Numbered from the stretch's first letter, positions 15,727 to 33,659 are shown. The stretch: 64,000 bases of DNA from Candidatus Hodarchaeota archaeon (GCA_016839815.1 JAEOTM010000057.1:1-64000), one strand, 5' to 3'. Made by a program: numbers and translations. The notes: generated by a model from the letters alone, not told the origin.

Positions 15727-15789
15727 CTACATCACATAACTCGTCTAATTAGAGAAACTCTGACTCTTTGTCGATTTTCTTTAGATTTG

Positions 15790-15828: not shown

Positions 15829-15839
15829 GTTAAACACAC

Positions 15840-16088: not shown

Positions 16089-16117
16089 TTTTTATCACCA
16101 TTTCAATTTCTTTGCAT

Positions 16118-16540: not shown

Positions 16541-16916
16541 TTCTATACAACTCTCATCGATTTAACAAGAAAAACTGTATTTTTTCTGAAAATTAAGTTG
16601 TTAATTGTGCGCTAATAACTCTCCGTTTTTAACTTTTCGTCTCAAGTCACAATATAGTTATCTTAAGTCATAGCGGAAATTTATTTTGCTCAATTTCGCG
16701 AATAGAAGTACTATATGTAACAAGAGAACTATCTATTGTGAATAAATATGTAAAATAGAGGACAGAAGGTTTTTAACAATATTTGATTTACGTTGTTAAC
16801 TCGACGTAAATAACTTGGGGTTATTAGCATGTAGCAAAAAAAACTGTAAAACCCCTAAAAGCTATTTACATTGGGTAATTTAAAAACAAACCAATAAAAC
16901 ATAGGATAGATATAGA

Positions 16917-17150
16917 ATGGTCGATATAGACATGACATTGGACTGCAAAGGCTTATCCTGTCCAATGCCTATCGTGAAATTAAACGCAGCTATCAAAAAG
17001 CTAGAAGTAGGACAAGTTCTAGAGATGCTCGGAACTGATCCTGGATCAAAGAAAGACGTACCCTTGTGGTGCAAGCGAAAAGGCAATGAAGTACTAGAGA
17101 CAAGCGAAGACGGCGGTATTTTTAGATTTATTATCCAACGTAAAAAATGA
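16917..17150 (+). CDS. tusA: TusA-family sulfurtransferase (YeeD-like)
   Basis: LDCKGLSCPMP, TDPGS, WC. Confidence 0.93.
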   Translation: MVDIDMTLDCKGLSCPMPIVKLNAAIKKLEVGQVLEMLGTDPGSKKDVPLWCKRKGNEVLETSEDGGIFRFIIQRKK

Positions 17151-17159
17151 GGTAATTTT

Positions 17160-18350
17160 ATGTCAGAAAAAGGAATGTTTTCAGAAGTATACGAAGTATT
17201 ATTTGGTGACTCATGGAAGATGTGGGTTGGCGCAATCATTCTCTCCTTCCTCAGCCTATCACTCTGGTTCTTCTTTGGACCTTGGGGTGCTACAGGTGGC
17301 TATATCTGGTGGGGCAATGAAGTTTTTAATCTCATTGGTGACAGAATGGTTGAAATAGTCCCTGGTGTTAATTCAGGCTGGGAAAATTACGCCTACCTGA
17401 ACATGCTAATTTTGGTTGGTGCTTTTGCCAGTGCATTATTAGCTAAAGAATTTGCCATTCGCATTCCACCAGTTGGTGAGCTTGTTAAAGGTCTAATCGG
17501 TGGTCTTTTAATGGGTATTGGAGCTGTAATTGGTGGTGGCTGTACTATTGGTGGATTCTATAGTGGTTGGCCCGCTCTAAGTGCAGCTGGATTGTTTATC
17601 GTATTAGGTTTCGTGATTGGAGTTTTCATTGCTGTACGATATCTTCTTTGGGAAGCTGATAAATATCCAGGTATCAGTTCAGGTGAATCCAAAAGCTTCT
17701 TAGCTGGTGGCAGTTGGCAACCAATCGTAGGATTCATTGTACTGGTTGCTGGTTTTGGAGTGTTACTTATCTTTGACGTAGCTACTCAGCTATCCATAAT
17801 TGGTGCTGTATTCATAGGTCTTCTCATAGGTTTTGTACTCCAACGATCTCGTTTTTGTATTGTTCGAGCTTTACGAGAACCTTTCATGACTGGTGAAGCT
17901 GCTCCTGCAAAAGCTGTAATGGTCGGTCTTTTGGTTGGTCTTGTTGGTTTTCTTGCAATGAAAGTATCTGGCACTGGTGCAGCACTGACAATGGTTGCAG
18001 GGAGCTTCTTTATACCTGCACTTTTAGGTGGAACCATTTTCGGTCTTGGTATGACAGTAGCTGGTGGTTGTGTTGTCGGTTCCTTATGGCGAAGTGGAGA
18101 AGGCCAAGTAAAATTATGGTTCTCCGTTCTCGGCCTTACCTTTGGTACTCTCTTCACAGTTGAATTCTTGAAAGAACCAGTTTATGATTTGTTCGAACCC
18201 ACTAAAGAATTCCTTCCCACCATGCTCAACGATGATCCAGCATCTTTAATTGGTTTCTTCCTCGCAGCTCTAGTCATACTAGCTGTTATTGCAATCTGGT
18301 ATATCATTGTTTCTTGGAATGAACGCACTGGTAAACTCCAACAGATGTAA
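17160..18350 (+). CDS. yeeE: YeeE/YedE family thiosulfate/sulfur transporter
   Basis: Gly-rich TM protein with GGCTIG, SRFC and AGGCVVG cysteine motifs; directly after tusA. Confidence 0.9.
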   Translation: MSEKGMFSEVYEVLFGDSWKMWVGAIILSFLSLSLWFFFGPWGATGGYIWWGNEVFNLIGDRMVEIVPGVNSGWENYAYLNMLILVGAFASALLAKEFAIRIPPVGELVKGLIGGLLMGIGAVIGGGCTIGGFYSGWPALSAAGLFIVLGFVIGVFIAVRYLLWEADKYPGISSGESKSFLAGGSWQPIVGFIVLVAGFGVLLIFDVATQLSIIGAVFIGLLIGFVLQRSRFCIVRALREPFMTGEAAPAKAVMVGLLVGLVGFLAMKVSGTGAALTMVAGSFFIPALLGGTIFGLGMTVAGGCVVGSLWRSGEGQVKLWFSVLGLTFGTLFTVEFLKEPVYDLFEPTKEFLPTMLNDDPASLIGFFLAALVILAVIAIWYIIVSWNERTGKLQQM

Positions 18351-18376
18351 AGAAGATTCTTTCGAGCAAGTTTTGA

Positions 18377-18419
18377 ATTGAAAGGAGGCAAATCCGATCC
18401 TCCTTTCAATCTTTTTTTT
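18377..18419 (+). terminator. Intrinsic terminator after yeeE
   Basis: 12-bp stem ATTGAAAGGAGG/CCTCCTTTCAAT then T8. Confidence 0.8.
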
Positions 18420-18551
18420 GAGAGTCAGAAAGTAGACGCATTTCGTAAAATATGTTAAATAAATGTTAAATCATAATTCTGAATCATTAAGGTTTAACCA
18501 TATGTTATACCATGATTAAAAGAAAAGCAATTAGTAAGTTGTGAATAATAA

Positions 18552-19334
18552 ATGGACAATTTTAGTTGTAGTTTAGATCATCCCATATTTGAGATCCTGT
18601 CCAATAAAACACGTTTAGAAATTCTCCGGATGATTGCGTGTGAGCAAAATTATGGGAGTAGAATCGCCTCCATTCTGAATATTTCTGCTCCTGCTATCCA
18701 TCGTCATCTCAAATTTCTCTCTCAGGATATGAAAGATGACAATATGGAGGATTTTTCATATATCAAACCCTCTTACAAGACAAGTGAAAGCTATTCAGGT
18801 CATAAAGGTGCTGAAGCTACAGTGTATGAAATTGGAACCAAGATGTATTTTTCTTTTGCGTTATACCCAAATTTTATTCAATCTCATGCTTTCCTTGTAG
18901 CTGCTGAAGCATCTTTAAGTGATAACAACTCTAATAACATTGAAGATGAAATACTTGACTATAAGAAAGATATGAAACATATTTCTAATGGTAGAATAGA
19001 AGAATACTCCAAGTTATTCAGCAAAATCCAAGAAAAAAACGAAAAAATTAGAACTCTGGAAAGTCAGATTATGAATATTTTGGAAGAAAAAAATGAACTT
19101 ATGAAAGATATCGACTCCTCTATCCAGAAAAGTTCCTCACTTTCATTTGACGAACGAGTCAGCTTACGTCTGATGGCTTGTCAAGGACCAGTATGCATTC
19201 CTAATTTACCAGAACTTCTTCGTCAGGATGTTGAAGTTACGAAGAAAAATCTCTTAAACCTTAAACTCAGAGGCTGGTTTTCAAAATTTGAAGACGAAAT
19301 CCAGAATGGAATCAAAAATATTCCAGAGGTTTAA
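18552..19334 (+). CDS. ArsR-family regulator with coiled-coil C-terminal extension
   Basis: FEILSNKTRLEILRMI, IASILNISAPAIHRHLKFL; heptad region; several Cys. Confidence 0.82.
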   Translation: MDNFSCSLDHPIFEILSNKTRLEILRMIACEQNYGSRIASILNISAPAIHRHLKFLSQDMKDDNMEDFSYIKPSYKTSESYSGHKGAEATVYEIGTKMYFSFALYPNFIQSHAFLVAAEASLSDNNSNNIEDEILDYKKDMKHISNGRIEEYSKLFSKIQEKNEKIRTLESQIMNILEEKNELMKDIDSSIQKSSSLSFDERVSLRLMACQGPVCIPNLPELLRQDVEVTKKNLLNLKLRGWFSKFEDEIQNGIKNIPEV

Positions 19335-19744: not shown

Positions 19745-20617
19745 TTACTCAGAGAGCTTATCCAAAAAGGGTTGGACTTTGATACTGTGCATCTTGAACC
19801 CCGTACTGAAATCCATACCCATTGTCAGGCCAAGAAGTTCCCCGAAGAAAAATACAGGAAGAGTGGTCTTTTCAAACTCTTTAGCCATTAAACGTTGGCC
19901 AGTGTCGTAGGAAATGAAACAAGTAGGACAAACTGTGACCAATGCATCGGCTTGTGCCATCTCTGCTCCGACAATCTTTTCATGAGCTATTTTTAAAGCC
20001 GTATCTTTATCTGTAGGTCTTGTACCAGCACCACAACAAGCGAGTTTGTTTAAATATGGGACTGATTCAGCACCTAAAGCTTCCACGAGATGATCAAGTT
20101 TTACTGGCATCTCAGGATTGTCAACTTGCATGATTTCAGGTGGTTTGAGGAAGTGACAGCCATTATGTGTTGCAAGTTTGATTCCAGATAGGGGTTTCCC
20201 AACTTGTTGTGCTATCCTATCTATTCCAATTTCAGTATAGAGAAATTCCGCAAAGTGATTGACTTGGATGGAACCCTTGAATTCCTTGCCAACCTCTTTT
20301 AGATTCTCGTTGACTTTCTTTTTCAGATCAGGATCACTCTTCAAACGCTCGTTAACCATTTTGAGTGTTTCAAAACAACCACTACACGCGGTAAGAATGT
20401 CAAGTCCCTGTTCTTCAGCCAGACAGATGTTACGAGCAGCCAATGTGTGCCATGCAACATTATCAAATGCTTGAACACCACCAGGATCTGGACAACAAGC
20501 AAAGGGGAGATCTACCAATTCTACGTCAAATTCTGGCATAGTTTTCCGCAATGAAGTTTCAATAAACGGAACGCGGTAGGGTATTGTACAACCAATAAAA
20601 AATGCATATTTTGACAT
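19745..20617 (-). CDS. hdrB: Heterodisulfide reductase subunit B
   Basis: FFIGC, ACCP, ACSGC, HNGCH, ACCGAG, VCPTC (two CCG domains). Confidence 0.95.
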   Translation of the reverse strand: MSKYAFFIGCTIPYRVPFIETSLRKTMPEFDVELVDLPFACCPDPGGVQAFDNVAWHTLAARNICLAEEQGLDILTACSGCFETLKMVNERLKSDPDLKKKVNENLKEVGKEFKGSIQVNHFAEFLYTEIGIDRIAQQVGKPLSGIKLATHNGCHFLKPPEIMQVDNPEMPVKLDHLVEALGAESVPYLNKLACCGAGTRPTDKDTALKIAHEKIVGAEMAQADALVTVCPTCFISYDTGQRLMAKEFEKTTLPVFFFGELLGLTMGMDFSTGFKMHSIKVQPFLDKLSE

Positions 20618-21114
20618 TAGGCTACATCCTCCTTTAGACTACTTAATTTTGTTGTCACACCCGTTATATCCATGAGTTTCTGTATCTCATTCATATCAGG
20701 AGCTGGAACTTCAGGTAATCCGAGTTTTTCTCTACGCTTCATAACAGATTGAGATTTACCTGCCGTGATACCAGTTTCTAAGATTGCAGTCATTTCCGCA
20801 ATAATCCCTTCTGGAGCATTTTTGACTTTCACAGCCATATTTTTCATCTCAAAAATTACATGTGCAATGTCTATCTCTTGAGGGCACCTGGTACTACAAG
20901 TGAAACATCCTGTACAATACCAGATTCGCTGTTCATCAAATACTTCTTGTTTAAATTCTCCAGCGAGTAATTTCTCCATTATTCGTCTGGGATTAAAACT
21001 CGAATACTGCTTGAATACTGGGCATCCACCCGCACAGGTACCACATTGGTAGCAAAGCTTCACTTTTTCGTAAAGATGTTGAAAATCACTAATGAGTTCT
21101 GTTGATTCAGTCAT
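20617..21114 (-). CDS. hdrC: Heterodisulfide reductase subunit C
   Basis: CYQCGTCAGGCP, IWYCTGCFTCSTRCP. Confidence 0.95.
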   Translation of the reverse strand: MTESTELISDFQHLYEKVKLCYQCGTCAGGCPVFKQYSSFNPRRIMEKLLAGEFKQEVFDEQRIWYCTGCFTCSTRCPQEIDIAHVIFEMKNMAVKVKNAPEGIIAEMTAILETGITAGKSQSVMKRREKLGLPEVPAPDMNEIQKLMDITGVTTKLSSLKEDVA

Positions 21115-21139
21115 TTGTTATTTCACCTTGTTTCACTAA

Positions 21140-23566
21140 TTACCGTTCAAGTTTTCCTAGCTTCTTGAGCTTATTGGCCATTTTCTTGGCGGTTATATCG
21201 AACTTATCACAGCTCATGAAGTAGACTGTTTCCTTTTCTAGGCGTGCAGGATCAATACCAGAGTATTCTAGCATTTGTTTCATGAGTGCAACACGAATCG
21301 TTGATGCTTTGGAACCTGAATCATAATGACATTTATCTTCATAACAGCCAAGTATTATAATTCCATCTGCTCCCATAGCAAAGGTATTATTAATTAGTCT
21401 GGCTGATATATTGCCTGTGCACTGAACAGGAAGTACTCTGACATTATGTGGGTATGCTCCAGGAACCATTTTCGTAGTATGTGCTAATGTACGAGCAGCC
21501 ATCCCAGAGGCATCAACTGCAGAATAAGCGCACTCCCAACAAGCGAGTGTAACTATTGTGGGCTCTGGATTATCCTTCACGTCATATAACAAACCTTCAA
21601 GTTGTTTAAGAATTATATCTTCCGAATAATAATCTACTCCTATAGCTGAAGCAGGACAGGTCGATACACATTGTCCGCAACCGAGACAACTAACGGGATC
21701 AACTTGCATTTTTACCCCAGGATTTTCTACGGGTATTACATCGATTGCTCCAAAAGGACAGGCCGTTACACAAAGTTCACATAATGTACACTTGTCATTA
21801 TCGATCTCTGCGGTTGGGAACTTTTTCTCGACAGATCCTTTAGAGAGAATCATGTCTAGATGACTAGCAGCATATCCAGCTCTATTAAGTGAGGTGGGAA
21901 TATCAGCAGGAGCAATAGCTGTACCAGCGACAAACACACCAGCTTTTTTAGTCTCTGTTGTCTTAAATTTGGAATATAATGCCTCAAAATATCCAGTATT
22001 TGAAATACCTACTTTTAGTTTCTTCGCTAATTCTTGGATACCAGGGGCAGCAACCATTGACATTGATAATGCTACCATATCAGTTTTGATGGTCACAAAT
22101 TGATCTGCTTGTGAATCTTCTGCTTGGACGTATAGGTTTGTCCCATCTGTCTCAACTTCGGCAGGACGACCCCGAATGAACTTTACACCAAGATCACGAG
22201 CTTTATTGTAAAATTCCTCGTAATTGGATCCGACAGCACGAATGTCGATATAACAGCAAGTCACATCAACCTTGGGAAATTTCTCCTTAATTTTGAGGGC
22301 GTGCTTTATCCCAATCATACAACAGACATTAGAACACCAGATGTTGTACTTCTGAGATCTCGAGCCAACACAATTAATTATAACAATGCTCTTTACTTTT
22401 TCGCCATTCTTTTTCCGTAAAAATCCATTGGTAGGTCCAGCGATATCTAATAATCGTGCGAGCTCGGTTTGTGTAACTATATTCTCATATCCAGGGACTC
22501 CATAGTGGTACTCCTCGACTACCTTCGCATCTAACTCTTCGAAACCTGTTGCGAGAATAAAACCACCTGCTTGTATAGTTTGGATTTCTTCTTGCATATT
22601 GAGATCTATAGCATCCACGGGACAGACTTTAGCACATTCAGTACAACCTTCAGGACATTTTTCTCTAGAAACTACATATTTAGTTGAAGTAGATACTTTA
22701 ACTGGTAAATCAATGGCTTTTCTATTGACCATCCCAAGATTGAATTCATCAGGAAATTCAACGGGACATTTCTGCGTACAAAGATTACAGTTGATACATT
22801 TATCCATTTTTACATAGGTTGGTTTCGTCTTGACTTCAACAGAATAGTTACCTAAAGCACCTTTAATATCTCCAACCTCTGAATTAATCAAGAGCTTAAT
22901 ATTTGGATGGAGATCAAAAGCCGACCGATAATGACATCTCCTAACATGACTCTGATCAATTCCTTTAACGCCATTACTGGGCATACAGGTTGCACAGTCC
23001 TCACTTGGGAAGAAAGTACCCATTTTGGCTGCATTTCCACCAATATACGAGTTTCGATCAATTAGATAGACTTTATGTCCTTTTTCAGCTAAATCTTGTG
23101 CTGCTTGTAACCCTGCAGGACCAGCTCCTATAACAACAGCAGAGTCTTGAATTTCAATTCTGTGTTTTTCAACATTAGTTTCAAAATTCGCTTTATTATA
23201 AGAGCTAAGCAAAACTGCTTTTGCTTTATTTGTAGCTAAGGTCTTGTCTGGTTCAACCCATCCAATGTGTTCTCTGAGATTAGCACCCACAATTTGATAG
23301 GGGGACATATTAACCTCTTTCATAACATCCTCAAATAAATAGCCTGCAGTTTTAGGTGTGCAGCCACCAAACACAATTGAGTCGGGTTGTTCTCTACCTA
23401 CTGCTTCTTTGAAGAAATCTTTCCCTTCTTTTGAACAAAGACTTTCATGATAGACACAGAACCCGGGTCTTTCTTTCATGAAGCCTTGTAGTTCATTCCA
23501 ATCGAGATTATCCAGTGAACCACCGCAATTACATAAAAATGTTCCAACTTTCATTGCTTTTTCCAC
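21140..23566 (-). CDS. hdrA: HdrA-MvhD fusion protein
   Basis: CNCG, GAGPAG, CVGSR..WCSNVCC, ferredoxins, then CWECAY..VQCTG..GCYEDKCHY MvhD domain. Confidence 0.93.
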   Translation of the reverse strand: MEKAMKVGTFLCNCGGSLDNLDWNELQGFMKERPGFCVYHESLCSKEGKDFFKEAVGREQPDSIVFGGCTPKTAGYLFEDVMKEVNMSPYQIVGANLREHIGWVEPDKTLATNKAKAVLLSSYNKANFETNVEKHRIEIQDSAVVIGAGPAGLQAAQDLAEKGHKVYLIDRNSYIGGNAAKMGTFFPSEDCATCMPSNGVKGIDQSHVRRCHYRSAFDLHPNIKLLINSEVGDIKGALGNYSVEVKTKPTYVKMDKCINCNLCTQKCPVEFPDEFNLGMVNRKAIDLPVKVSTSTKYVVSREKCPEGCTECAKVCPVDAIDLNMQEEIQTIQAGGFILATGFEELDAKVVEEYHYGVPGYENIVTQTELARLLDIAGPTNGFLRKKNGEKVKSIVIINCVGSRSQKYNIWCSNVCCMIGIKHALKIKEKFPKVDVTCCYIDIRAVGSNYEEFYNKARDLGVKFIRGRPAEVETDGTNLYVQAEDSQADQFVTIKTDMVALSMSMVAAPGIQELAKKLKVGISNTGYFEALYSKFKTTETKKAGVFVAGTAIAPADIPTSLNRAGYAASHLDMILSKGSVEKKFPTAEIDNDKCTLCELCVTACPFGAIDVIPVENPGVKMQVDPVSCLGCGQCVSTCPASAIGVDYYSEDIILKQLEGLLYDVKDNPEPTIVTLACWECAYSAVDASGMAARTLAHTTKMVPGAYPHNVRVLPVQCTGNISARLINNTFAMGADGIIILGCYEDKCHYDSGSKASTIRVALMKQMLEYSGIDPARLEKETVYFMSCDKFDITAKKMANKLKKLGKLER

Positions 23567-23569
23567 CTT

Positions 23570-25027
23570 TTAGTCCTCCCAATTCCTTAATGTCTTTAGT
23601 GTCGATCCTTTGTGATCGATTATCTGTACTTCTGTCGCTACGGCACCTGATTTCAAAACGTGTGTCGCACAGCTGAAACAGGGATCATAGGCTCTAACAA
23701 TCATTTCAAGTCGATTCAGTAATCCTTCAGCTGGTTCTGCATCAACTATTAATTCTTTTGCCGAAACATTTACAGAACGATTGATTGCTTCATTATTACT
23801 TACCGTTGCAACGATTAAATTAACATCGGTTGTGATTCCTTTGCGATCTGTGACATAGTGATGGAAAAGAGTTCCTCTATGTGCTTCAAGAATTCCTACA
23901 CCTTCTTCTTCACGAGGTTCGACAGGGGTTCGTAATTTGGTCCCCAAGATATCAGGGTCTTCTAAAAGTTCGAGCGTTGCTTCAACTCCATGTGCTAATT
24001 CAATAATACGGGAATAATTATACAACAAAGATTGTGGAGTTGGACGTCCGAATTTATTACGAAATTCTGTTAGGAGTTCCTGTGCTATTGGTGTATCGAT
24101 TTTATCTGCAGCATTCACTCTAGCAAGGGGCCCGACACGATAACATCCTTCTTCAAACGATTTTTTCTTGTAATAGGGGAATTTCAGGTATGAATAATCC
24201 TTGATACGTTCAGAGATCACATCGCGGTATGAAGGATCGGAACTAGAGAATTCCTCGAGTACTTGAGCATCATGACCAAGCAATCTAACCTTTCCGTCAT
24301 AAAATCGCAATTCTCCTTCATTTCCTACCATTCCCATGTGCATCGTAGGTAGAACTCCTAAAGACCCAATTGCATCTGCATATTGATCGAAAAGAGCCAT
24401 CGCTGTATCTTTAGCCTCAGGTAGGAAATTTGTTGCAATATCCTTTACATCCTTCATTATGGAATCGCGATTTTCTTGAGAAAGTCCTTGAGATTGTCCC
24501 CCAGGGACAGCAGTCACGGGATGAACAGTTCTTCCACCAAGAATCTTAGTAATCTTCTGCCCAACTTTTCTAGCTGCAATAACCTTCTTTACTAGTTCGG
24601 GATTTGCTTCCAGAACTCCAAATACATTCCTTTTAGCTGGATCTGAATCAGGTCCCAGAACTAAATCTGGTGCTGCAAGATAAAAGAAATGTAATACATG
24701 GGAATGAATGAAGGAACCCATGAGCATTAATCTTCGTAGCTTAAATGCTGTAGGGGGAAGATCCTGTGGTTCTAAGCCGAAAGCTCTATCAACAGCTTTA
24801 CCAGAGCATAAATGATGAGGAGAATGGCATATACCACACATTCGTGGTGTCAATAATGGCATTTCTTCAACTGGTCGACCAATAAGGAATTTTTCGAAAC
24901 CTCGGAATTCTACTACTTTTACTTGGGAATCAATTAGATGATTATTCTCGTCTAAGAATAATTTTATCTCTGCATGTCCTTCAATCCGAGTAACGGGATC
25001 TACTTTAATAATTTTTGTAGCATTCAT
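23570..25027 (-). CDS. mvhA: [NiFe]-hydrogenase large subunit, group 3c (Mvh)
   Basis: TRIEGH, RGFEKF, RMCGICH, RAYDPCFSCATH plus cleavable C-terminal tail. Confidence 0.95.
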   Translation of the reverse strand: MNATKIIKVDPVTRIEGHAEIKLFLDENNHLIDSQVKVVEFRGFEKFLIGRPVEEMPLLTPRMCGICHSPHHLCSGKAVDRAFGLEPQDLPPTAFKLRRLMLMGSFIHSHVLHFFYLAAPDLVLGPDSDPAKRNVFGVLEANPELVKKVIAARKVGQKITKILGGRTVHPVTAVPGGQSQGLSQENRDSIMKDVKDIATNFLPEAKDTAMALFDQYADAIGSLGVLPTMHMGMVGNEGELRFYDGKVRLLGHDAQVLEEFSSSDPSYRDVISERIKDYSYLKFPYYKKKSFEEGCYRVGPLARVNAADKIDTPIAQELLTEFRNKFGRPTPQSLLYNYSRIIELAHGVEATLELLEDPDILGTKLRTPVEPREEEGVGILEAHRGTLFHHYVTDRKGITTDVNLIVATVSNNEAINRSVNVSAKELIVDAEPAEGLLNRLEMIVRAYDPCFSCATHVLKSGAVATEVQIIDHKGSTLKTLRNWED

Positions 25028-25947
25028 TATTCTTTCTTCTCCTTAATTTTTCCAAGTTTAGAGTAGGCAAACTGATGTTGGTACATCACAGATACTGGAT
25101 CATTTCCCATTGCTTCGAAGACCTGTTCAACTCCAACTTGACTGGCTAATGTTCCCAAAAAGGATGAAGTATCTACTCCAGGATCAGTACCTTTCTCTGG
25201 ATCGGGATTCAATGGACCGTGACATCCACGACAAGGTACACCAACTTTGGTACATCTCGCATCACATAATCCCCAGGTAACTGGACCTACACAAATATAT
25301 CCCTGCTCTAAAAAGCATTTATCAGGATCAATTTCTTCTCCAGCAGATTTGTACCAACGTTTCAGTTCAGTAATTTTATCATGACTCTTTTCTCTTGGAC
25401 ATGGTTCACAAACAGACTGATTTGGCAGATTTAAAGGTTCTCCATTTAACAAAGCCATAACACCAGTAGCTATCAACTCTGGTACAGGTGGACAACCTGG
25501 AACCACAACATCAACATCAATGACAGATGAAAGTGGAAGCACTTTTTCTGTTAAGGGAGGAACATCGTCTCTAGGCTCTCTACCTAAAGGATTATCTAAA
25601 CCCATACAATTACCAGGATAATAGACTTTATCAAATATTTCCTCGCGTGTGTATAAATTACCTAGTCCAGGGGTCCCGCCAAAGCAGGCACATGACCCCA
25701 AAGAGACGATTATCTTACAGTTTTTCCGCATTTCTTTAGCTACGTGAATATTATGCTCATTCCTTATTCCTCCTGTGATAATTCCCACATCTGCAGGAAC
25801 AAATTCTTTCACATCGGCAAGAACAGGAGATCGCACTATATCAGCTTTAGCTAGTACGTCAAGAATAGCTTCATGAATATCCAGTAGCGATATATGACAG
25901 CCACTGCATACCATTAACCACTCAGTCGCGACTCTTGCTTTACTCAT
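25027..25947 (-). CDS. mvhG: [NiFe]-hydrogenase small subunit
   Basis: CSGCH, GSCACFGG, PGCPP, CEPCPR, CFLEQGYIC, CRGC. Confidence 0.95.
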   Translation of the reverse strand: MSKARVATEWLMVCSGCHISLLDIHEAILDVLAKADIVRSPVLADVKEFVPADVGIITGGIRNEHNIHVAKEMRKNCKIIVSLGSCACFGGTPGLGNLYTREEIFDKVYYPGNCMGLDNPLGREPRDDVPPLTEKVLPLSSVIDVDVVVPGCPPVPELIATGVMALLNGEPLNLPNQSVCEPCPREKSHDKITELKRWYKSAGEEIDPDKCFLEQGYICVGPVTWGLCDARCTKVGVPCRGCHGPLNPDPEKGTDPGVDTSSFLGTLASQVGVEQVFEAMGNDPVSVMYQHQFAYSKLGKIKEKKE

Positions 25948-26211
25948 ATTAAATATCCTCTTATTAATTAATATTAATTATTGATAGATCTAGGGGTAAA
26001 AATAGTGTTAAGATCTATTCTTTTTACATATAGATGGCCAATCTACTGAATTTTGACACAAGAGAATTTTATATTAATATATCTGTAACTATTGTTAAAT
26101 TCTGAGCAAAAACGTCCATTTAGATTTATCTACACAGAGTCAGATTGTATACAATATAGTTATAATGTCACATCTTCTACTAAGCGGAAAAGTATTCTTC
26201 TCTCGAACGAA

Positions 26212-26733
26212 TTAATCGGTTTTGATCGTATAATTCTCTGATGAGAGAAGACTGATGATATGGGATTTCAATTTAGGAATAAGTTCTTTTACCCCTTTGG
26301 TTACTTCAGGAGTTAACTCTTCCCCAATGAAACCAATTTCCTTAATCTGTACACCATAAATTTCTATGGGGTTAGGAACTTCATATCCGCCTATTTTTGC
26401 ATACTTTAAAACCGGTAATACTCCAACCCCATGAGAAGAAAATCCTCCCGCATCTTTAACGTCAACATCGTGTAAATTTCCTAAATAGAAAATATCTCCA
26501 GGTTTCAATCCTTGATCAGCCATGGAAGCTGCATCAACTATAATAGCGTGGTCAAATCCATCTATTGCATCAAGAATATCCAATCCACCTGTATTTAAAT
26601 ATTGAAATGAAATTCCCATCTTTAGTAATTCTTCATCCTGTTCTAATTGCTCGACTACTCGAATTCCTGCTCCATCATCCATTCTTATTGAGTTCCCCAC
26701 TCCCAGAATTACTAATCTTTTCGAATTGTTCAT
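26212..26733 (-). CDS. Hydrogenase maturation protease (HyaD/HycI family)
   Basis: GVGN..RMDDGAG, IVDA, SSH. Confidence 0.92.
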   Translation of the reverse strand: MNNSKRLVILGVGNSIRMDDGAGIRVVEQLEQDEELLKMGISFQYLNTGGLDILDAIDGFDHAIIVDAASMADQGLKPGDIFYLGNLHDVDVKDAGGFSSHGVGVLPVLKYAKIGGYEVPNPIEIYGVQIKEIGFIGEELTPEVTKGVKELIPKLKSHIISLLSSENYTIKTD

Positions 26734-27008: not shown

Positions 27009-28172
27009 TTACACAGTAGCAATCAATCTAGCTTTTTCTTTTATCGAGGCAAAATACACGGCTAGTGGTCGATAAAGCATGTGTGACCATTTTCCAAAAG
27101 GTACTTCAATAATCAGCATTGGTCCTGCAATCATCAGATGGATAACATATATGAAATAACTTGGATAGGTGAAATTCATTAGACGGAATAAGTGTAGGAA
27201 GATACCTGTAACTGCAGTTAAGAAAAGTAGAATCAGGAATAGCCAATCAGATAGATGAGAAAATTTGTGTAATTGTTCTTTCTTTTTATACCGACTCCAC
27301 ATTGCTTCAAGAGTGACAAATAAGAGAGCTACAGTGCCATAATAACCGAGAAGTGAGGTAATATCCCAACGTGTATCATCCACTTGGAAAATATCGATAA
27401 AGACTACAACGAGAGTAAAAATTGTTACATATCCAGTGACTAAGAATACATGTTTTAACCAGCGGAATTTATTATCACAATTCCTCCAGCGAATTTGAAA
27501 CGGAAAACTTAGCGCTGTTTCAATAATTCCTTTAAATTCTGTAAAATACAGTTTGATAGGTACTTTCACACTTTTATCGCTTAGAATTATGTAATAATAC
27601 ATTCTAAATGCATTTGTAAGCAATAGAAAAGCTAACGTTCCTCCCAGTACTAGGTCACCAATGTGAATCCATTCTTTAGGTGCAAAACTGTCAATTGAGA
27701 CATTACTACCTTCCATTGTACTGATTCCAGTCAGATTTGCTACTAGAAAGATTCCCAAAATTAATAATGCTAATGCAATTAAAGCTCCAAATTCCCATTT
27801 ATGAGAAAGATATAATCTTTTAGATAATCCTGTCCAGTCATATCTCGCAGTAAGATATCTACGAGTAGCCATCATAAATTCACCAGGTTCTGCTTGACTA
27901 GGACATGAAGTGGAACAATCTCCACAATAATAACACAACCATGGTTCGGCATGAGTTAAGATTTTTTCTTCTAAGCCTAGTTTCGCATATCTGATAAATC
28001 TACGAGGAAAATCATTACCACTGACTGAAAGAGGACACGAAACAGTGCATTGACCACATGAAAAGCATGCAGATACGTCAAATGCTCCAAACTTCTTGAT
28101 AGTTTTAAATACATCAGGTTTAACATTAAGAACCTTTTCTGTACCAGTATGTGCAGTTACCATGATAATCAC
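27009..28172 (-). CDS. QmoC-like subunit, copy 2
   Basis: CFSCGQC..SCP, WLCYYCGDC..CP; close paralog of 10774-11913; probable ATG a few codons into the ORF. Confidence 0.85.
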   Translation of the reverse strand: MIIMVTAHTGTEKVLNVKPDVFKTIKKFGAFDVSACFSCGQCTVSCPLSVSGNDFPRRFIRYAKLGLEEKILTHAEPWLCYYCGDCSTSCPSQAEPGEFMMATRRYLTARYDWTGLSKRLYLSHKWEFGALIALALLILGIFLVANLTGISTMEGSNVSIDSFAPKEWIHIGDLVLGGTLAFLLLTNAFRMYYYIILSDKSVKVPIKLYFTEFKGIIETALSFPFQIRWRNCDNKFRWLKHVFLVTGYVTIFTLVVVFIDIFQVDDTRWDITSLLGYYGTVALLFVTLEAMWSRYKKKEQLHKFSHLSDWLFLILLFLTAVTGIFLHLFRLMNFTYPSYFIYVIHLMIAGPMLIIEVPFGKWSHMLYRPLAVYFASIKEKARLIATV

Positions 28173-28615
28173 CTTTTCTTTATTGGACCTAACTCCTTTA
28201 TTTGATCAGTAAACTCGGTCATAATTTGAGCAAAACGCTTTCCTTCAGAGGCTGAAATCCATTCTAACCGTAAGCGATCAGTTTCCCAGCCTAATATATC
28301 AAAAGCCTCTTTCGTATTTTTAATTCGAACCTCAGCGCTCAAATTTCCTTCAAGATAGTGGCAATCTCCCGGGTGACATCCGGCTACGATAACTCCATCA
28401 GCCCCTTTAAGAAACGCCTTCATAATAAAAGCAGGATCAACACGTCCAGAACACATAACACGAACTATCCGGATATTTGAGGGATATTTCAATCTTGAAA
28501 CACCAGCTAAGTCAGCTCCCGCATATGAACACCAATTACACGCTATACAAATAATGGTTGGTTCAAATGATCCTTCTGTTTTTTCAGTTTGAATTTCTGT
28601 TGTTGTTTGAGTCAT
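28169..28615 (-). CDS. mvhD: MvhD [2Fe-2S] subunit
   Basis: CNWCSYAGAD, VMCSGRV, GCHPGDCHY, WISASEG. Confidence 0.95.
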   Translation of the reverse strand: MTQTTTEIQTEKTEGSFEPTIICIACNWCSYAGADLAGVSRLKYPSNIRIVRVMCSGRVDPAFIMKAFLKGADGVIVAGCHPGDCHYLEGNLSAEVRIKNTKEAFDILGWETDRLRLEWISASEGKRFAQIMTEFTDQIKELGPIKKR

Positions 28616-28632
28616 TTCCTATCACTACTCCT

Positions 28633-31600
28633 TTAGGGTGCCTCCACAGGTGGTTGTTCGACGCCTTCGATACTCGGTTCAGATTTTGAAAGTATAGCTT
28701 CAATCTGAGCATTAATCGTTTCATTTTGGAAGTGGCTAATTGTGATTGCACTAACGGGACACGTTACTACGCATAAACCACAACCTTTGCAAACTCCTGG
28801 ATTGACAAAGGCTTTTACTGTCTTTATGGTAGTTGTTTCCATACTAATTTCCTTCTCGTGAAGTTCTATGGCCTTATAAGGACATATTTCTTCACATCGT
28901 CCACATCCTCGACACATTTCCTCATTCACTTCAGAAATGGCTCCTTCAGATAATAGATAACCTGGTGCCAGTAATGCCATTACTCGAACAGCTGCTCCAC
29001 TTGCTTGATATATACTTTCATAGGTAAATTTCGGGTAATGAGCTGTTCCTGCAAGAAAAACTCCGTCAGTGGCAAAATCCAAAGGTCTTAATTTGACATG
29101 TGCTTCAAGGAAGAACTTATCTGCACCTCTTGGAACTTTGAACATTTGACTTAGCTCTTCGTTGGGTTTAGGGACAAGAGGAGTGCTAAGAAGAATTGTA
29201 TCAACATCCTGAATTCGTAGCTTTTCACCCAGTGTGATATCCAATACTTCCACTGATCCATCAGAATTTATTGTTGGTTTGTTATCATCATTGTAACCTA
29301 TGAAAACTGTTCCCAATTTCCGGGTTTTGAGATATAACTCCTCAAGATCACCATAAGTACGGACATCTTTATAGAGAATGAATACATTTGCATCTGGATC
29401 TCTTTCTTTAATTCTAATGCTGTTCTTAATTGCGGTGGTACAGCAAATTCTAGAACAATACGTTCTAGGAGCTTCATCTTCACGTGAACCCACACACTGG
29501 ATCATTACAACTGTTTTTGGGTCTGTTTGGTCAAATTCTAGCTCAAATTCTCTTTGTGTTTTCACCCGAGTATCATTCCCATATTCATAGTATCCTTCTG
29601 GGATGAATGGTCGTGCCCCAGTTGCTAGCACTGCTGCACCAAACTTTATCTCCTGTCCATTAACAATACCTGTAAATTTACCTACCGCTCCAGTCAAAGA
29701 TTCGAGATTTGCCCCTGTGAATACCGTGATATTTTCTTCATCATTTACTTGGTTTGCTAATTCTTTAACAATATCTTCCCCCTGAAGCTCATTATGGAGA
29801 CGTGGTATCTCCAGTAATTCACCCCCAAGCTGATTTTCCTTTTCAACAAGGTAAACAGGATACCCTCCACGGGCTATATCTAGTGCCGCAGTCATTCCAG
29901 AGATTCCCCCTCCAACAACTAATGCCTTCTGGTCAATAGGAATTTTCTCTTTCAGTAATGGTTCTAGTCGACAAGTTCGTGCGATGGCACCACGTAACAT
30001 ATCTTTTGCTTTCTCTGTTGCTTCACCTTTTTCATGGGGATGAACCCAGGAGATATGTTCTCTTAGATTTGTTAACTCGAAAAGAAATTCATTTAATCCT
30101 GCTTCTTTTAATGTACTTCTAAATAGTGGTTCATGAGTTCGAGGAGTACAGGAGGCGACTATGATTCGATTTAGGTTGTGCTCTTTGATTTTTTCTTTAA
30201 TTGTAAGTTGTGTATCAGCAGCACATGCATAAAGAGGATCATCAGCGAATTTCACATTCGGAAAAGTCCGAGCATATTCTGCTACCTCTTTAACATCTAC
30301 TACCGAAGCAATGTTATGGCCACAGTGGCACACAAATACACCTATTCGCGATTCATCAGCTGAATCAACAGCTATTGCACGGGGATACTTCTTTTCTTTT
30401 ACTTCAGTTCCCCTAACATCTTTGAGTAAGATAGCTGCTTTTGCGGCCGCTCCACTAGCTTGTGCAACGGTATCAGGTATATCTTTTGGCCCTGATGCTA
30501 CTCCACAAACATAGACCCCAGGTTTACTTGTCTCAATTGGTTTCAAAGGATCTGAAACTACAAATCCATTATGATCTAATTCCAGATGAAGTTGGTTCTG
30601 CAAAAAGTCTGTTTGAGACGTGGTATCCATCCCTGTAGATAAGACTACCATATCCATTTCCTTTGTTGTAATTGAAGGAGAGTCCATAAATTGCTCAAAT
30701 TTTAAAATAAGATTCTGATTCTCAGGATTTTCTTCTATTTCGTAAATTCTAGAGTTAATGAATTTGATCCCAAACTCATTGATGGCTCTTTTATAGAATT
30801 CCTCAAACCCCTTTCCAAATGCTCTTATATCCATATAGAAAATGTAGGCTTCGACATCTGGATCGTGTTCTTTTGCCATAATTGCCTCTTTTATCGCATA
30901 CATACAACAGGCTGCCGAACAGTACTCTTTATTGATTGATAAGTCACGTGAACCAACACATTGAAGAAATGCAATTTTCTTTGGATGTTTCCCGTCTGAG
31001 CGACGGACAACTTCTCCTTCAGTTGGACCTGAAGCATTGAGAAGTCTTTCAAATTGCAAAGTTGTAAACACGTTTGGATACTCCTCGAAATGCAGTCTCT
31101 CAATTTCCTTAGCATCAAAAGGATCAAAACCAGTGGTAGTAATTACTGCACCAACATTGACAGAGCATTCCTCATCCTTTTGAGTATAATCGATAGCTCC
31201 TGGACCACATTTCTTCTCACATATCTTACACTTACCTTCCTGAAAATATCTACACGTATCATGCTCTAAATATGCAACCTTTGGAACCGCCTGTGGAAAT
31301 GGAATTGAAATATTCTTCCTACCAGCTTTTTCTCTCCCTTTTTTATCTTTTTTAGTTAATCCTGCATTAAAATCATCCTCAATCCAGACTGGACATTTTT
31401 CTTCACAAATTCCACAACCTGTACAGAGCTCCTCATCTACATAACGTGCTTTTTTCGTATATTTGAGAGTAAAATTTCCAGCAGATCCTTCTAAATCCAC
31501 GGGATCACAGTAAGATAACAATTCGATGTTTGGATGTCTTTCTACTTCTACTAGTTTTGGCCCTAAAATACACATCGCACAATCTAAAGTTGGAAATGTT

Positions 31601-31752
31601 TTATCCAGCTGAACCATTCTCCCACCGATGCTTGGGTTGCTTTCTAGCAAATAAACTTTAAATCCTTGATCTGCTAAGTCAAGAGATGACTGTATTCCTG
31701 CAATTCCACCGCCAATTATCGCAACTGATCCTCTTTTTTCTGCTTCTGTCAT
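28633..31752 (-). CDS. hdrA: Large two-module HdrA-like flavoprotein (QmoA+QmoB-like fusion)
   Basis: Two GGGI(A/S)G FAD motifs, two CVGSR..YCS..CC motifs, internal CHCG module, terminal ferredoxin. Confidence 0.92.
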   Translation of the reverse strand: MTEAEKRGSVAIIGGGIAGIQSSLDLADQGFKVYLLESNPSIGGRMVQLDKTFPTLDCAMCILGPKLVEVERHPNIELLSYCDPVDLEGSAGNFTLKYTKKARYVDEELCTGCGICEEKCPVWIEDDFNAGLTKKDKKGREKAGRKNISIPFPQAVPKVAYLEHDTCRYFQEGKCKICEKKCGPGAIDYTQKDEECSVNVGAVITTTGFDPFDAKEIERLHFEEYPNVFTTLQFERLLNASGPTEGEVVRRSDGKHPKKIAFLQCVGSRDLSINKEYCSAACCMYAIKEAIMAKEHDPDVEAYIFYMDIRAFGKGFEEFYKRAINEFGIKFINSRIYEIEENPENQNLILKFEQFMDSPSITTKEMDMVVLSTGMDTTSQTDFLQNQLHLELDHNGFVVSDPLKPIETSKPGVYVCGVASGPKDIPDTVAQASGAAAKAAILLKDVRGTEVKEKKYPRAIAVDSADESRIGVFVCHCGHNIASVVDVKEVAEYARTFPNVKFADDPLYACAADTQLTIKEKIKEHNLNRIIVASCTPRTHEPLFRSTLKEAGLNEFLFELTNLREHISWVHPHEKGEATEKAKDMLRGAIARTCRLEPLLKEKIPIDQKALVVGGGISGMTAALDIARGGYPVYLVEKENQLGGELLEIPRLHNELQGEDIVKELANQVNDEENITVFTGANLESLTGAVGKFTGIVNGQEIKFGAAVLATGARPFIPEGYYEYGNDTRVKTQREFELEFDQTDPKTVVMIQCVGSREDEAPRTYCSRICCTTAIKNSIRIKERDPDANVFILYKDVRTYGDLEELYLKTRKLGTVFIGYNDDNKPTINSDGSVEVLDITLGEKLRIQDVDTILLSTPLVPKPNEELSQMFKVPRGADKFFLEAHVKLRPLDFATDGVFLAGTAHYPKFTYESIYQASGAAVRVMALLAPGYLLSEGAISEVNEEMCRGCGRCEEICPYKAIELHEKEISMETTTIKTVKAFVNPGVCKGCGLCVVTCPVSAITISHFQNETINAQIEAILSKSEPSIEGVEQPPVEAP

Positions 31753-31769
31753 TTTTTCTTCCTCACATA

Positions 31770-32897
31770 TTATTTACTTGATGTAGATTCATCTACTATC
31801 ATTCCAAGCTCCTTAATTTTAATTTGGAAGTTGTGTTGAGGTTTTCTATCTTCCATTACGCAATTTAAATGCGCAAAACATTTTGTGCATCCGACAGCAA
31901 GAGTTCCTTCATCTCCTACTACGTCTTTAGTTTCTTCTAACTTTCTTAGCATTATTGCGCGTGAGTTATCATCACATTTGAGCCATGCAGACACACCACA
32001 GCACTTCGTATGTTGTTTATTCAAGGTAAATTCTTTTATATTACCACCAGCAGCTTTTAACACAGATCTAGGTGTATCATACTCGTTCATGTATCGACCT
32101 AATCTACAGGCATCATGATAGGCTACATCATAACTATCTCCCTTGAAATCTAATTTCTCCTTATTCTCTTCAATGAATTGAGCGATATGTTGAACTCGAA
32201 CGTTGAGATCATACAATTTCTCAAAAGAATAGTAGCATTCTGCACACGAAACAACAAGGGTTGTTATTCCTGCTTCCTTAATGTATTGGGTATTATACTC
32301 ACGTACTTTCTCATAGGCGTCTTCGTCACCCGTCCAGTACGCATCATGACCACAACATTTAAGAGATATCAGATTAGGACTCACTCCCGCTTTATTCATG
32401 AGATTGATAGCACTTTGACCAATCTGATGAAAATTAGTTTCTTCTAAATCTAAAAATTTGTCAAACAGGTCAATACAACCAGGGAAATATGCAATCTTTG
32501 ATTCAGGATTCGTTTGACCTTCATACTCAAACTTCATCCCTGAATCAGTCATTTCACCCATAAATACTTGCAGTAAATTAAAGATATTATGATGAGCAAA
32601 TTTATCTTCACTAATTCCTTTTTTTCTGGATAATCGTATAAATTCAGGAAAATCAACTTCTTGGGGACATATTTCTAAGCAGAGTCCACATGTTAAACAG
32701 GAAGTTAGTTCATCCTCGGTCACTGAGTCGTATATCTTGAAATTGTGAATGATTCTTCTTGGGTTAAATTTTGATACTCTACGGACTGGACATACACTTA
32801 CACAGGATGAACATTGATAACAAGCTAATAATATTGATTTCAGTTCATCGGAATTTATATCAAATTCATATTTCGGTTGACTCTCTGATAGTACCAT
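31770..32897 (-). CDS. HdrD-like (HdrC+HdrB fusion) Fe-S protein
   Basis: Two ferredoxin motifs then FPGC..CCG..CAEC and HDAC..CCG..CTKC. Confidence 0.88.
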   Translation of the reverse strand: MVLSESQPKYEFDINSDELKSILLACYQCSSCVSVCPVRRVSKFNPRRIIHNFKIYDSVTEDELTSCLTCGLCLEICPQEVDFPEFIRLSRKKGISEDKFAHHNIFNLLQVFMGEMTDSGMKFEYEGQTNPESKIAYFPGCIDLFDKFLDLEETNFHQIGQSAINLMNKAGVSPNLISLKCCGHDAYWTGDEDAYEKVREYNTQYIKEAGITTLVVSCAECYYSFEKLYDLNVRVQHIAQFIEENKEKLDFKGDSYDVAYHDACRLGRYMNEYDTPRSVLKAAGGNIKEFTLNKQHTKCCGVSAWLKCDDNSRAIMLRKLEETKDVVGDEGTLAVGCTKCFAHLNCVMEDRKPQHNFQIKIKELGMIVDESTSSK

Positions 32898-33275
32898 AAG
32901 TTTGTCTCCTCACACTATTATTGATTTCTTTTTTGAATTCGGTCTCAACGGATTGTCAAAATATCTAAAACACTTTATTAGTTGTGAACTGCCCTCTCCA
33001 GTAACCACTTCATTGTTAGAATATAAACTAGCATTATATAAACTAATGGTCAATAATGGCATTAAAATCACAACTCTTAGTCCTACGGTGGACTAAAAGG
33101 AAGTTGTCAACAGTTTTGATTACTGGCTTTATATATTCTTTGATAAGTGATCGTTTTGTAGCCAAAAGTTAACCAAAGATAACAATAGAAAAGAATTTAA
33201 GAATTAAAAAATGTTTTAAGCACATAATCACCCACCCTCTTAAACATATTAGTTTTTGAAAAGGAAGTAAAAAAT

Positions 33276-33659
33276 ATGTCCCCCGAAGTAGATGATTCTT
33301 GTAAATACTATAAAGAACACCAATGGGTAAGAGTGGAAGATGGTATATGCTTAGTCGGAATTTCCGATTTTGCTCAAGATTCTTTAAAAGATGTCGTAAT
33401 GGTTGAACTCCCTGAGGTTGGAGATTCTGTTACACAAGGTGAAGTATTCACCTCTATCGAAAGCGTAAAAGCTGTAAGTGATGTCTTCAGTCCAATCTCA
33501 GGAGAAATTATTGAGGTCAATGAAGAGCTAGAAGACACTCCAGAGAATGTCAATGAAGATCCTTATGGAAGTTGGCTTGTGAAAGTCAAACCATCGAATC
33601 TTGATGCTGATTTAGCTAATTTAATGAGTCCTGCAGAATATGAAGATTTCTGCGGTTAG
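33276..33659 (+). CDS. gcvH: Glycine cleavage H-type lipoyl carrier protein
   Basis: EHQWV, GISDFAQ, IESVKAVSD lipoyl-Lys motif, VNEDPYG. Confidence 0.95.
   Translation: MSPEVDDSCKYYKEHQWVRVEDGICLVGISDFAQDSLKDVVMVELPEVGDSVTQGEVFTSIESVKAVSDVFSPISGEIIEVNEELEDTPENVNEDPYGSWLVKVKPSNLDADLANLMSPAEYEDFCG

Follow-up and report, generated by a model that had tools for sequence, protein, structure and literature searches.

Linkage of gcvH to a heterodisulfide reductase-like operon in Hodarchaeales-type Asgard archaea, with lipoyl-GcvH as a candidate redox partner

Protein-bound lipoate has been connected with heterodisulfide reductase (Hdr)-like complexes in two settings, which form the background to the locus considered here: a gcvH gene, encoding a lipoyl carrier (H) protein, that faces the operon for an Hdr-like complex in a 64,000-nucleotide stretch of DNA ("the window") from Candidatus Hodarchaeota archaeon (GCA_016839815.1, JAEOTM010000057.1:1-64000). 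In sulfur oxidizers, genetic work showed that the sHdr complex requires the GcvH-like protein LbpA (PMC6067878); LbpA forms a branch separate from GcvH, with conserved N-terminal and C-terminal cysteines (Cao et al., 2018, PMC6067878). Two sHdr gene layouts are described, type I (shdrC1B1AHC2B2) and type II (shdrC1B1AHB3-etfAB-emo; Cao et al., 2018, PMC6067878; Tanabe et al., 2024, PMC11094781), the second being defined by shdrC1B1AHB3 and etfAB in one syntenic cluster (PMC11094781). In the non-methanogenic Culexarchaeia, gcvH lies amid Hdr and [NiFe]-hydrogenase genes in an Ehe/HdrA2B2C2 cluster (Kohtz et al., 2022, PMC9723716), and GcvH was put forward, as a proposal, as the disulfide carrier for HdrB (PMC9723716). 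For Asgard archaea, the Hdr substrate has been called an "unidentified heterodisulfide" (PMC11291895), and no paper was found that links GcvH to Hdr in this group. The conserved linkage described below makes lipoyl-GcvH a tentative candidate.

Linkage of gcvH to the Hdr-like operon

In the window, gcvH stands opposite a compact four-gene minus-strand unit encoding an HdrD-like protein, a double HdrA, MvhD, and a QmoC-like protein (Table 1). A sequence-only reading of the window, which this analysis follows up, had described a gcvH with an intact ESVKA site, a 378-bp divergent gap, and a lead gene with two CCG motifs, and all of these are located as described. The N-terminal part of the HdrD-like protein resembles solved HdrC chains; besides two CxxCxxCxxxCP motifs, its sequence contains a pair of complete CCG motifs (C141..C181C182..C218xxC221 and C264..C299C300..C337xxC340), and all 18 cluster cysteines are invariant across 15 homologues. 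On the other side of the divergent region, which presumably carries the promoters of both genes, GcvH passes the NCBIfam GcvH equivalog model TIGR00527 (143.9 bits; cut-off, 115.85) and is similar to solved GcvH structures (E 1e-33); its lipoyl lysine and ESVKA motif are invariant in the 17 sequences aligned. The double HdrA matches the HdrA2 model with 979 bits over three stretches, with dinucleotide-binding motifs at residues 9-47 and 609-647 and a Fer4 domain at 941-1007. A co-fold using the HdrD-like and GcvH alignments gave a score of 0.00, which weighs neither way on binding.

The last gene of the unit had been taken to encode a heme b membrane subunit at the end of the operon. Its first 4 bp are shared with the end of mvhD, its product aligns over the full length of the NCBIfam qmoC model, and seven histidines of the membrane part are invariant in seven homologues; haem binding is plausible from these features. 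However, the match (177.9 bits) is under the cut-off of 300, the haem is putative, and genes on the same strand resume 275 bp further on with HycI, MvhG, MvhA, an HdrA-MvhD fusion, HdrC, and HdrB (26733..19745). The sequence-only reading had the four genes right, but made no mention of these downstream maturation, [NiFe] hydrogenase, and HdrABC genes.

Table 1. Positions of the main features of the island, counted from the first nucleotide of the window (aa, amino acids)
Feature	Position	Strand	Description
ccmB-ccmA-ccmC	33754-36179	-	System I cytochrome c maturation; directly after gcvH
gcvH	33276..33659	+	127 aa; canonical-type lipoyl carrier, lipoyl lysine K65 in ESVKA; matches TIGR00527
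gcvH/HdrD-like intergenic region	32898..33275		378 bp, divergent, AT-rich
HdrD-like gene	31770..32897	-	375 aa; HdrC-type domain (two [4Fe-4S] motifs) fused to HdrB-type domain (two complete CCG motifs)
Double HdrA (fused)	28633..31752	-	1039 aa; two FAD/thioredoxin-reductase-type modules and C-terminal 2x[4Fe-4S] ferredoxin domain
MvhD	28169..28615	-	148 aa; [2Fe-2S] electron-transfer adaptor; FlpD, 185 bits
QmoC-like gene	27009..28172	-	387 aa; HdrC-type 2x[4Fe-4S] domain and multi-span membrane domain
HycI/FrhD-family hydrogenase maturation protease	26212..26733	-	275 bp downstream of the QmoC-like gene
MvhG	25947..25027	-	Small subunit, Mvh/Vhu-type (group 3c-like) [NiFe] hydrogenase; VhuG, 262.6 bits
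MvhA	25027..23570	-	Large subunit, Mvh/Vhu-type (group 3c-like) [NiFe] hydrogenase; VhuA, 448 bits
HdrA-MvhD fusion	23566..21140	-	808 aa
HdrC	21114..20617	-	Part of a conventional soluble Hdr set right after mvhA
HdrB	20617..19745	-	Last gene of the conventional soluble Hdr set
Sulfur-relay and second Qmo-like block	9731..19334		OsmC, TusA, QmoC-like, winged helix-turn-helix (wHTH), HdrA (577 aa), HdrA (434 aa), MvhD-like, TusA, DsrE, TusA, YeeE, ArsR-type regulator

HdrD-like orthologs were searched for in 400 genomes, and the coordinates of gcvH and HdrD-like genes were then cross-matched (genomes, contigs, and loci are numbered here with G, C, and L; the window's own genome is G000). Besides a single genome elsewhere in the phylum, orthologs occur only in the genus-level group to which the window belongs, where 15 of the 21 other genomes have one. 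The clade has 15 loci, in 14 genomes, at which gcvH and the HdrD-like gene are divergent, with gcvH 0.3-7.8 kb upstream; HdrD-like identities across these linked loci are 56-79%. Of the loci retrieved with an HdrD-like alignment, 80 in all, 15 have Asgard titles, and in 13 of these gcvH is upstream and divergent.

The linkage is kept through at least five local gene arrangements. The two genes face each other directly in the window, G063, G060, G074, and G076; an HdrC'-HdrB' pair intervenes in contig C25 of the window's genome and in G058, G061, and G062; and the longer series EtfB-EtfA-EMO-like-HdrC'-HdrB'-small HdrA intervenes in G066. In another arrangement gcvH is wedged between the gene for the EMO-like protein and hdrD, and in G073 it is on the same strand, right after HdrAA-MvhD-small HdrA. 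In G071 the pair is divided over two contig ends, in the order expected. In the more distant clade members gcvH remains, but neither the ccm genes nor the TusA/DsrE/YeeE block is still in the vicinity: the gcvH-ccm adjacency is kept in C25, G058, G062, and G063, and lost in G066, G070, and G074. Each clade genome with an HdrD-like ortholog also has the Hdr-linked type of gcvH (class A, below); G059 (87% complete, 20 contigs) lacks both, yet keeps gcvT and a class B gcvH.

Two irregularities in assembly or gene content may be mentioned here. In G064, a single-contig metagenome-assembled genome (MAG), the HdrD-like gene is 5'-truncated (C1:593823-594611, L114), and gcvH (C1:1338196-1338555, L115) is found 0.74 Mb away beside a partial EtfB gene; this suggests a misjoin or a collapsed region of the assembly, and not a real separation. 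In L013 and L016, loci of close relatives, hycI is separated from the Hdr-like operon by two opposite-strand genes, one for a 298-residue radical SAM protein (Radical_SAM and Fer4_12 domains; L013:15947-16843 and L016:15569-16465, both minus strand) and the other an open reading frame of 162-175 residues without a family match; both genes are missing from the window, where 275 bp separate qmoC from hycI.

Outside the clade the association was not found. In a sister Heimdallarchaeia family, 30 gcvH loci were surveyed, and no Hdr or Etf gene is present within 1.5 kb of any of them; none of ~65 Bathyarchaeia, anaerobic methanotrophic archaea (ANME), and Methanoperedens loci with the nearest HdrD-like homologues (~40% identity) has a gcvH in flanks of up to 10 kb. 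The gcvH-hdrD synteny to which the sequence-only reading had drawn attention therefore holds within the clade, but is absent from these groups. A broader statement, that it is conserved across Asgard phyla, had been suggested by the names of MAGs at NCBI (Thor-, Hermod-, Prometheo-, and Heimdall-) and was narrowed when 15 of the 16 other carriers turned out to belong to one genus-level group. G297, the sole carrier from another family, gives no information on linkage, its HdrD-like gene being on a 6-kb contig that does not include gcvH.

GcvH classes and the host genome

GcvH proteins of the clade fall into three classes: A, which is Hdr-linked and passes the family cut-offs; B, which also passes them and has a conserved FttA-PUA-diphthine-synthase context; and C, which is divergent and fails them, with ETNK at the lipoyl site and a position 2.7 kb upstream of gcvPA/PB. 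The class C gene of the window's genome (C112:50204-50686, or L093:3205-3687) encodes 160 amino acids; in several genomes class C is also ~26.5 kb from gcvT. Class C groups with LbpAs on the tree, but on a very long branch, and could be an alternative H protein. Between the class C gene and gcvPA there is a gene for a Ras-family small GTPase (Ras, 157 bits; C112:51697-52221, L093:4698-5222), which fits an Asgard origin.

For comparison with LbpA, five LbpAs from two sHdr loci were included in an alignment and a maximum-likelihood tree, and both rule out an LbpA identity for the window GcvH. An N-terminal cysteine (DDSC) was considered as an LbpA hallmark and dropped, because it occupies a different position and is restricted to the subclade of the window; the C-terminal cysteine is common to ordinary GcvHs.

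The nearest homologues carry Hodarchaeales or Heimdallarchaeota names. The genome itself (89.5% complete, with 7.8% estimated contamination) holds four GcvH-family genes, one gcvT, gcvPA/PB, one E2, two LpdA genes over the curated cut-off, and two LplA-family genes, on contigs C17 and C45. Its glycine-cleavage genes are dispersed: gcvPA/PB are at 53.3-56.3 kb and gcvT at 76.6 kb on C112, which also carries two more GcvH-family genes. The observation that the window's gcvH has no gcvT, gcvP, or L protein gene beside it is correct but, because the genes are scattered, this is normal here and says little by itself. None of gcvT, gcvPA/PB, or the two LpdA genes is on the window's contig, and the two other GcvH-family genes could serve them. 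To our knowledge, Asgard archaea make no coenzyme M (CoM) or coenzyme B (CoB). A check on CoM and CoB had been proposed in the sequence-only reading, and no match to McrA or ComA was found in this genome, with the caveats that it is 89.5% complete and that the ComA control fails to detect Methanosarcina; CoM synthesis is likely absent, and CoM-S-S-CoB is therefore an unlikely substrate.

The genome also contains a second syntenic copy of the entire island, on the 25.8-kb contig C25 (L094, L095), with protein identities to the window of 54-92%; a narrower range, 66-88%, is also given. Its order is DsrE-TusA-MvhD'-QmoAB-wHTH-QmoC, TusA-YeeE-ArsR, HdrBC-HdrA/D-MvhAG-HycI, and MvhD-HdrAA-HdrD-HdrB'-HdrC', with gcvH at the end. 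It differs from the window in lacking a QmoC gene behind MvhD and in having an HdrC'-HdrB' pair that separates gcvH from the HdrD-like gene. Since every other clade genome has at most one HdrD-like ortholog, and given the estimated contamination, this copy may come from a co-binned relative instead of being a paralogue.

The surrounding island and related systems

The operon facing gcvH does not stand alone but forms one module of a 25-kb island of genes for Hdr-type redox proteins. VhuA, VhuG, and VhuD (the last at 132 bits) are the best NCBIfam matches of the hydrogenase proteins, each under its equivalog cut-off. MvhA, MvhG, and MvhD are encoded beside HdrA, in the order MvhG-MvhA-HdrA/MvhD-HdrC-HdrB; from the profile matches and this gene order, the enzyme is predicted to be Mvh/Vhu-type and group 3c-like. 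Just downstream of the intact hdrB, a 63-residue stretch at 19388-19576 (minus strand) with 60% identity to the HdrB C-terminus is probably a relic of a duplicated or replaced hdrB.

The sulfur-relay and second Qmo-like block is linked to the gcvH-Hdr cluster in the closest relatives only. Its QmoC-like gene (10774-11913, minus strand) is 76% identical to the one behind mvhD, which lies within 16 kb of it, and the latter looks like a lineage-specific duplicate inserted in the HdrD operon. At the edge of the island, an OsmC-family gene (9731-10135, plus strand) adjoins TusA; C25 has no OsmC match. Ohr/OsmC peroxidases are lipoyl-dependent, and a link of this protein to the reduced lipoyl-protein pool is conceivable. 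No lipoate ligase or LipS1/S2 gene is among those annotated at 7-40 kb of the window, and the annotated genes of the window include no aprAB or sat.

Some relatives have a fuller version of the cluster. The complete chromosome G066 encodes a GcvH-family protein, EtfAB, a 717-residue membrane protein with Fer4 and CCG domains (EMO-like), an HdrC/HdrB pair, a 349-residue HdrA without ferredoxin domains, and a fused HdrC+B; its locus L021 holds EtfBA, the EMO-like protein, HdrC', HdrB', the 349-residue HdrA, and the fused subunit. The kinds of proteins in this set correspond to those of type II sHdr-LbpA as defined in PMC11094781. Over its whole length the small HdrA can be aligned with sHdrA of Hyphomicrobium denitrificans (PDB 6TJR). 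Its nearest full-length relatives outside the clade (~31% identity) are encoded in a Thermaerobacter and a Thermoplasmata MAG, at typical sHdr-LbpA loci that also include LbpAs, ligases, radical SAM genes, TusA, DsrE, and YeeE. By comparison the window copy appears to be a reduced form, without HdrC'B', the small HdrA, and EtfAB, and with the duplicate of the neighboring QmoC gained.

In the sHdr-LbpA systems, too, a gene for a GcvH-family lipoyl protein adjoins those for an Hdr-like complex that has two CCG-type modules. The likeness is extended in the window's relatives by the 349-residue HdrA, EtfAB, the EMO-like membrane CCG protein, and the fused HdrC+HdrB, and on the window's island by genes for TusA, DsrE, YeeE, and ArsR. 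However, the Asgard cluster is without an sHdrB1-type subunit, its lipoyl protein is a canonical GcvH and not an LbpA, and no dedicated ligase or lipoyl synthase is seen in it; the window attaches the double HdrA, MvhD, and an Mvh-type hydrogenase; and its fused subunit keeps both CCG motifs, where sHdrB3 is said to bind one non-cubane cluster only. An assignment of the relatives' HdrC'B' as sHdrC1B1 was rejected, as HdrB' matches sHdrB2 with 170-180 bits, ordinary HdrB with 127, and sHdrB1 with ~49. As to the type II layout, in which shdrC1B1AHB3 and etfAB are syntenic, the window has the fused HdrC+B only, and the HdrB' of G066/L021 is of the B2/HdrB type; archaeal reports of type II are moreover limited to one phylum, Thermoplasmatota. 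On sequence grounds the Asgard cluster is thus not classed here as an sHdr system, though it is built from the same kinds of parts.

The nearest kin of the HdrD-like protein are not sHdr subunits but proteins of ANME and Bathyarchaeia (39-44% identity, the closest homologues outside the clade), from Hdr clusters with fused HdrA of more than 1000 residues and HdrD-like proteins (Chadwick et al., 2022, PMC9012536). There too HdrD-like, HdrCB, double HdrA, and MvhD co-occur; the differences are the lack of gcvH at the loci surveyed above, and the use of CoM/CoB by those organisms or their kin. The MvhADG-HdrABC complex of hydrogenotrophic methanogens (5ODC) likewise has an HdrA-type flavoprotein, MvhD, a CCG-type module, and same-strand genes for an Mvh-type [NiFe] hydrogenase. 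In the window, however, HdrC and HdrB are fused, HdrA is double, a QmoC-like membrane subunit is attached, a separate conventional MvhGA-HdrA/MvhD-HdrCB set follows just downstream, and the genome has no McrA or ComA match. HdrD of the methanophenazine-dependent HdrDE, which pairs with the cytochrome b HdrE and acts on CoM-S-S-CoB, is a similar HdrC+HdrB fusion with two [4Fe-4S] and two CCG motifs, but in the window no HdrE is adjacent and the double HdrA comes next; the lack of an McrA or ComA match is a difference here as well.

QmoABC of sulfate reducers, a complex associated with AprAB, shares two HdrA-type modules, an MvhD-type domain, and an HdrC-type domain with a cytochrome-b-type membrane subunit; it differs in that the window's QmoC match is under the cut-off, aprAB and sat are absent from the annotated window genes, a CCG protein heads the operon, and the QmoC-like gene is variable in relatives. 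The Culexarchaeia cluster resembles the window in its gcvH amid Hdr and [NiFe]-hydrogenase genes of a non-methanogenic archaeon, but belongs to another phylum, with a group 4 membrane hydrogenase and another Hdr set. LpdA, the L protein of glycine cleavage, would share a substrate with the Hdr-like complex, the GcvH lipoyl arm, but is an NAD-linked flavoprotein disulfide reductase without Fe-S clusters; as it is also encoded, the Hdr-like complex would be an addition to it and not a substitute.

A possible role for lipoyl-GcvH

The reading favored here, tentatively and with a likelihood that we would place somewhat short of even, is that the CCG subunit has lipoyl-GcvH as its dithiol/disulfide partner in the Hodarchaeales-type clade. 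It draws on the conserved linkage of the two genes, the survival of this linkage through rearrangements, the negative controls, and the co-occurrence of the genes; on the invariant CCG cysteines and lipoyl lysine, the two LplA-family genes, and the lack of McrA/ComA matches; on the closest full-length non-Asgard relatives of the small HdrA, which are in sHdr-LbpA loci; and on the precedents of LbpA-sHdr (PMC6067878), the Culexarchaeia proposal (PMC9723716), and the gap in what is said of the Asgard Hdr substrate (PMC11291895).

As a mechanism, the K65 lipoyl arm would enter the CCG domain of the HdrD-like subunit, where, at two non-cubane [4Fe-4S] clusters, the lipoyl disulfide would be reduced or the dithiol oxidized, as HdrB does with CoM-S-S-CoB. 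The HdrC-type clusters in that polypeptide would relay electrons to the double-flavin HdrA, which would exchange them with ferredoxin and, via MvhD, a second partner. The second partner would vary with lineage: in the window, the QmoC-like protein (quinone pool) and/or the Mvh-type [NiFe] hydrogenase; in relatives, EtfAB and the EMO-like protein. The complex would act beside LpdA, coupling the redox state of lipoyl-GcvH, and with it glycine cleavage or synthesis, to low-potential carriers. Relevant potentials are ~-290 mV for lipoamide, -414 mV for H2, ~-500 mV for ferredoxin, and ~-75 mV for menaquinone. On these textbook values, H2-driven bifurcation to ferredoxin and lipoyl disulfide, and bifurcation driven by dihydrolipoyl groups to quinone and ferredoxin, would both be roughly balanced; the direction of the reaction is not inferable from sequence.

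Several observations weigh against GcvH being such a partner. Class A proteins are 54-62% identical to ordinary GcvH (including one from a bacterial gcvT-gcvH operon) and 27-35% to LbpAs; they are on short branches amid canonical GcvH in the maximum-likelihood tree, apart from the LbpAs; and their motif is ESVKA, vs. ESGKW in the LbpAs compared. In seven relatives, all of which keep gcvT, class A is the sole canonical GcvH (G060, G064, G066, G067, G071, G074, and G075; G066, G071, and G074 are 96-99% complete and have only classes A and C), so that it probably also does the housekeeping job there, which alone could conserve it. LpdA is found in 20 of 22 clade genomes, and no alternative lipoyl oxidoreductase is therefore required. 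The positive loci share one ancestor and are hence not independent: the evidence is gene context in one clade. In all arrangements but one gcvH is divergent, so the layout does not imply co-transcription, and in the closest relatives ccmB-ccmA-ccmC is equally conserved on its other side. The proposal of the sequence-only reading, that the disulfide is GcvH-bound lipoate rather than CoM-S-S-CoB, is thus supported in part by the recurrent adjacency in the clade, the controls, and the missing McrA/ComA, but weakened by the canonical nature of the protein and its status in the seven relatives. Of the combination which that reading had named as fatal to it, an adjacency unique to this genome together with a housekeeping H protein served by LpdA, the uniqueness fails, but GcvH is canonical and LpdA is present.

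The same facts can be explained by an inherited neighborhood without direct interaction: a housekeeping gcvH, working with the P and T proteins and LpdA, would have become fixed beside the Hdr-like cluster in the ancestor of the clade, with at most shared regulation via the divergent promoter region. The canonical sequence and tree position of class A, its sole-copy status, the near-universal LpdA, the scattered glycine-cleavage genes that make a lone gcvH normal, the origin of all loci in one genus-level group, and the synteny with ccmBAC in near relatives all favor this. We nevertheless regard it as rather unlikely: the adjacency has outlasted at least five rearrangements that added or removed 2-7 kb of genes between or around the pair; the Ccm link was lost in the more distant G066, G070, and G074; the subclade genomes with a second canonical gcvH, of class B, still hold class A beside the Hdr-like cluster; and links between GcvH-family proteins and Hdr-like complexes are known in unrelated lineages (PMC6067878, PMC9723716).

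A sulfur system of the sHdr/LbpA type, in which GcvH would carry sulfane sulfur from TusA, DsrE, and YeeE and the Hdr-like complexes would oxidize it or, with H2, reduce it, is suggested by the three TusA genes, DsrE, the YeeE-type transporter, and the ArsR-type regulator within 13-24 kb on the window island, by the presence of the same accessories in the sHdr-LbpA locus L120, and by the resemblance of the small HdrA to sHdrA and of EtfAB and the EMO-like protein to parts of type II sHdr. It is nevertheless improbable. No sHdrB1-type subunit is present, HdrB' reaching ~49 bits to sHdrB1; GcvH lacks ESGKW, the N-terminal cysteine position of LbpA, and an extended C-terminal cysteine tail, and groups apart from the LbpAs; dedicated lipoate ligase or LipS genes are absent from the annotated window genes; the window itself has no HdrC'B', small HdrA, or EtfAB; and proximity of TusA, DsrE, and YeeE to the cluster is limited to the closest subclade, with none within 34-60 kb in G066, G070, and G074.

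Less probable still is the original model of a dihydrolipoamide:quinone oxidoreductase that ends in a haem b subunit and replaces E3/Lpd. The QmoC-like gene of the window, with its invariant histidines and translational coupling to mvhD, is consistent with it, and the EMO-like membrane CCG protein of some relatives shows that a membrane link recurs. A replacement is not supported, however, given the two LpdA genes of this genome and the distribution of LpdA in the clade. Nor is the quinone link conserved: QmoC is found behind MvhD only in the window, L013/G063, L017/G074, and L018, is absent from C25 and most relatives, and in the window is a 76%-identical duplicate of the QmoC in the neighboring Qmo-like set, while MvhD and the adjacent hydrogenase indicate a soluble partner too.

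A partner role for lipoyl-GcvH can also be stated in a stronger form, on which we are more doubtful: that the "heterodisulfide" used in vivo by Hodarchaeales-type Asgard archaea for Hdr-type flavin-based electron bifurcation or confurcation is lipoyl-GcvH, so that a canonical H protein, and not a specialized LbpA, would tie glycine cleavage or synthesis directly to ferredoxin, H2 (through Mvh), and the quinone pool. The general idea is already published, experimentally for sulfur oxidizers (PMC6067878) and as a proposal for the Culexarchaeia (PMC9723716), and what is offered here is an extension, not a new principle. Distinct features of the present case are a canonical rather than an LbpA-type GcvH, the attached double HdrA, MvhD, and Mvh-type hydrogenase, and the host lineage.

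In Asgard archaea, few energy genes are discussed as often or expressed as highly as those for Hdr and Mvh. A lipoyl protein whose gene keeps its place by an Hdr-like operon through rearrangements is a concrete candidate substrate, open to purification and assay. If the partner role is correct, the principle of sHdr-LbpA, with protein-bound lipoate as the working thiol, would extend to a hydrogenase-linked setting outside the sulfur oxidizers and to an ordinary GcvH; on the stronger form, the long-unknown Hdr substrate would be identified in the archaeal lineage closest to eukaryotes.

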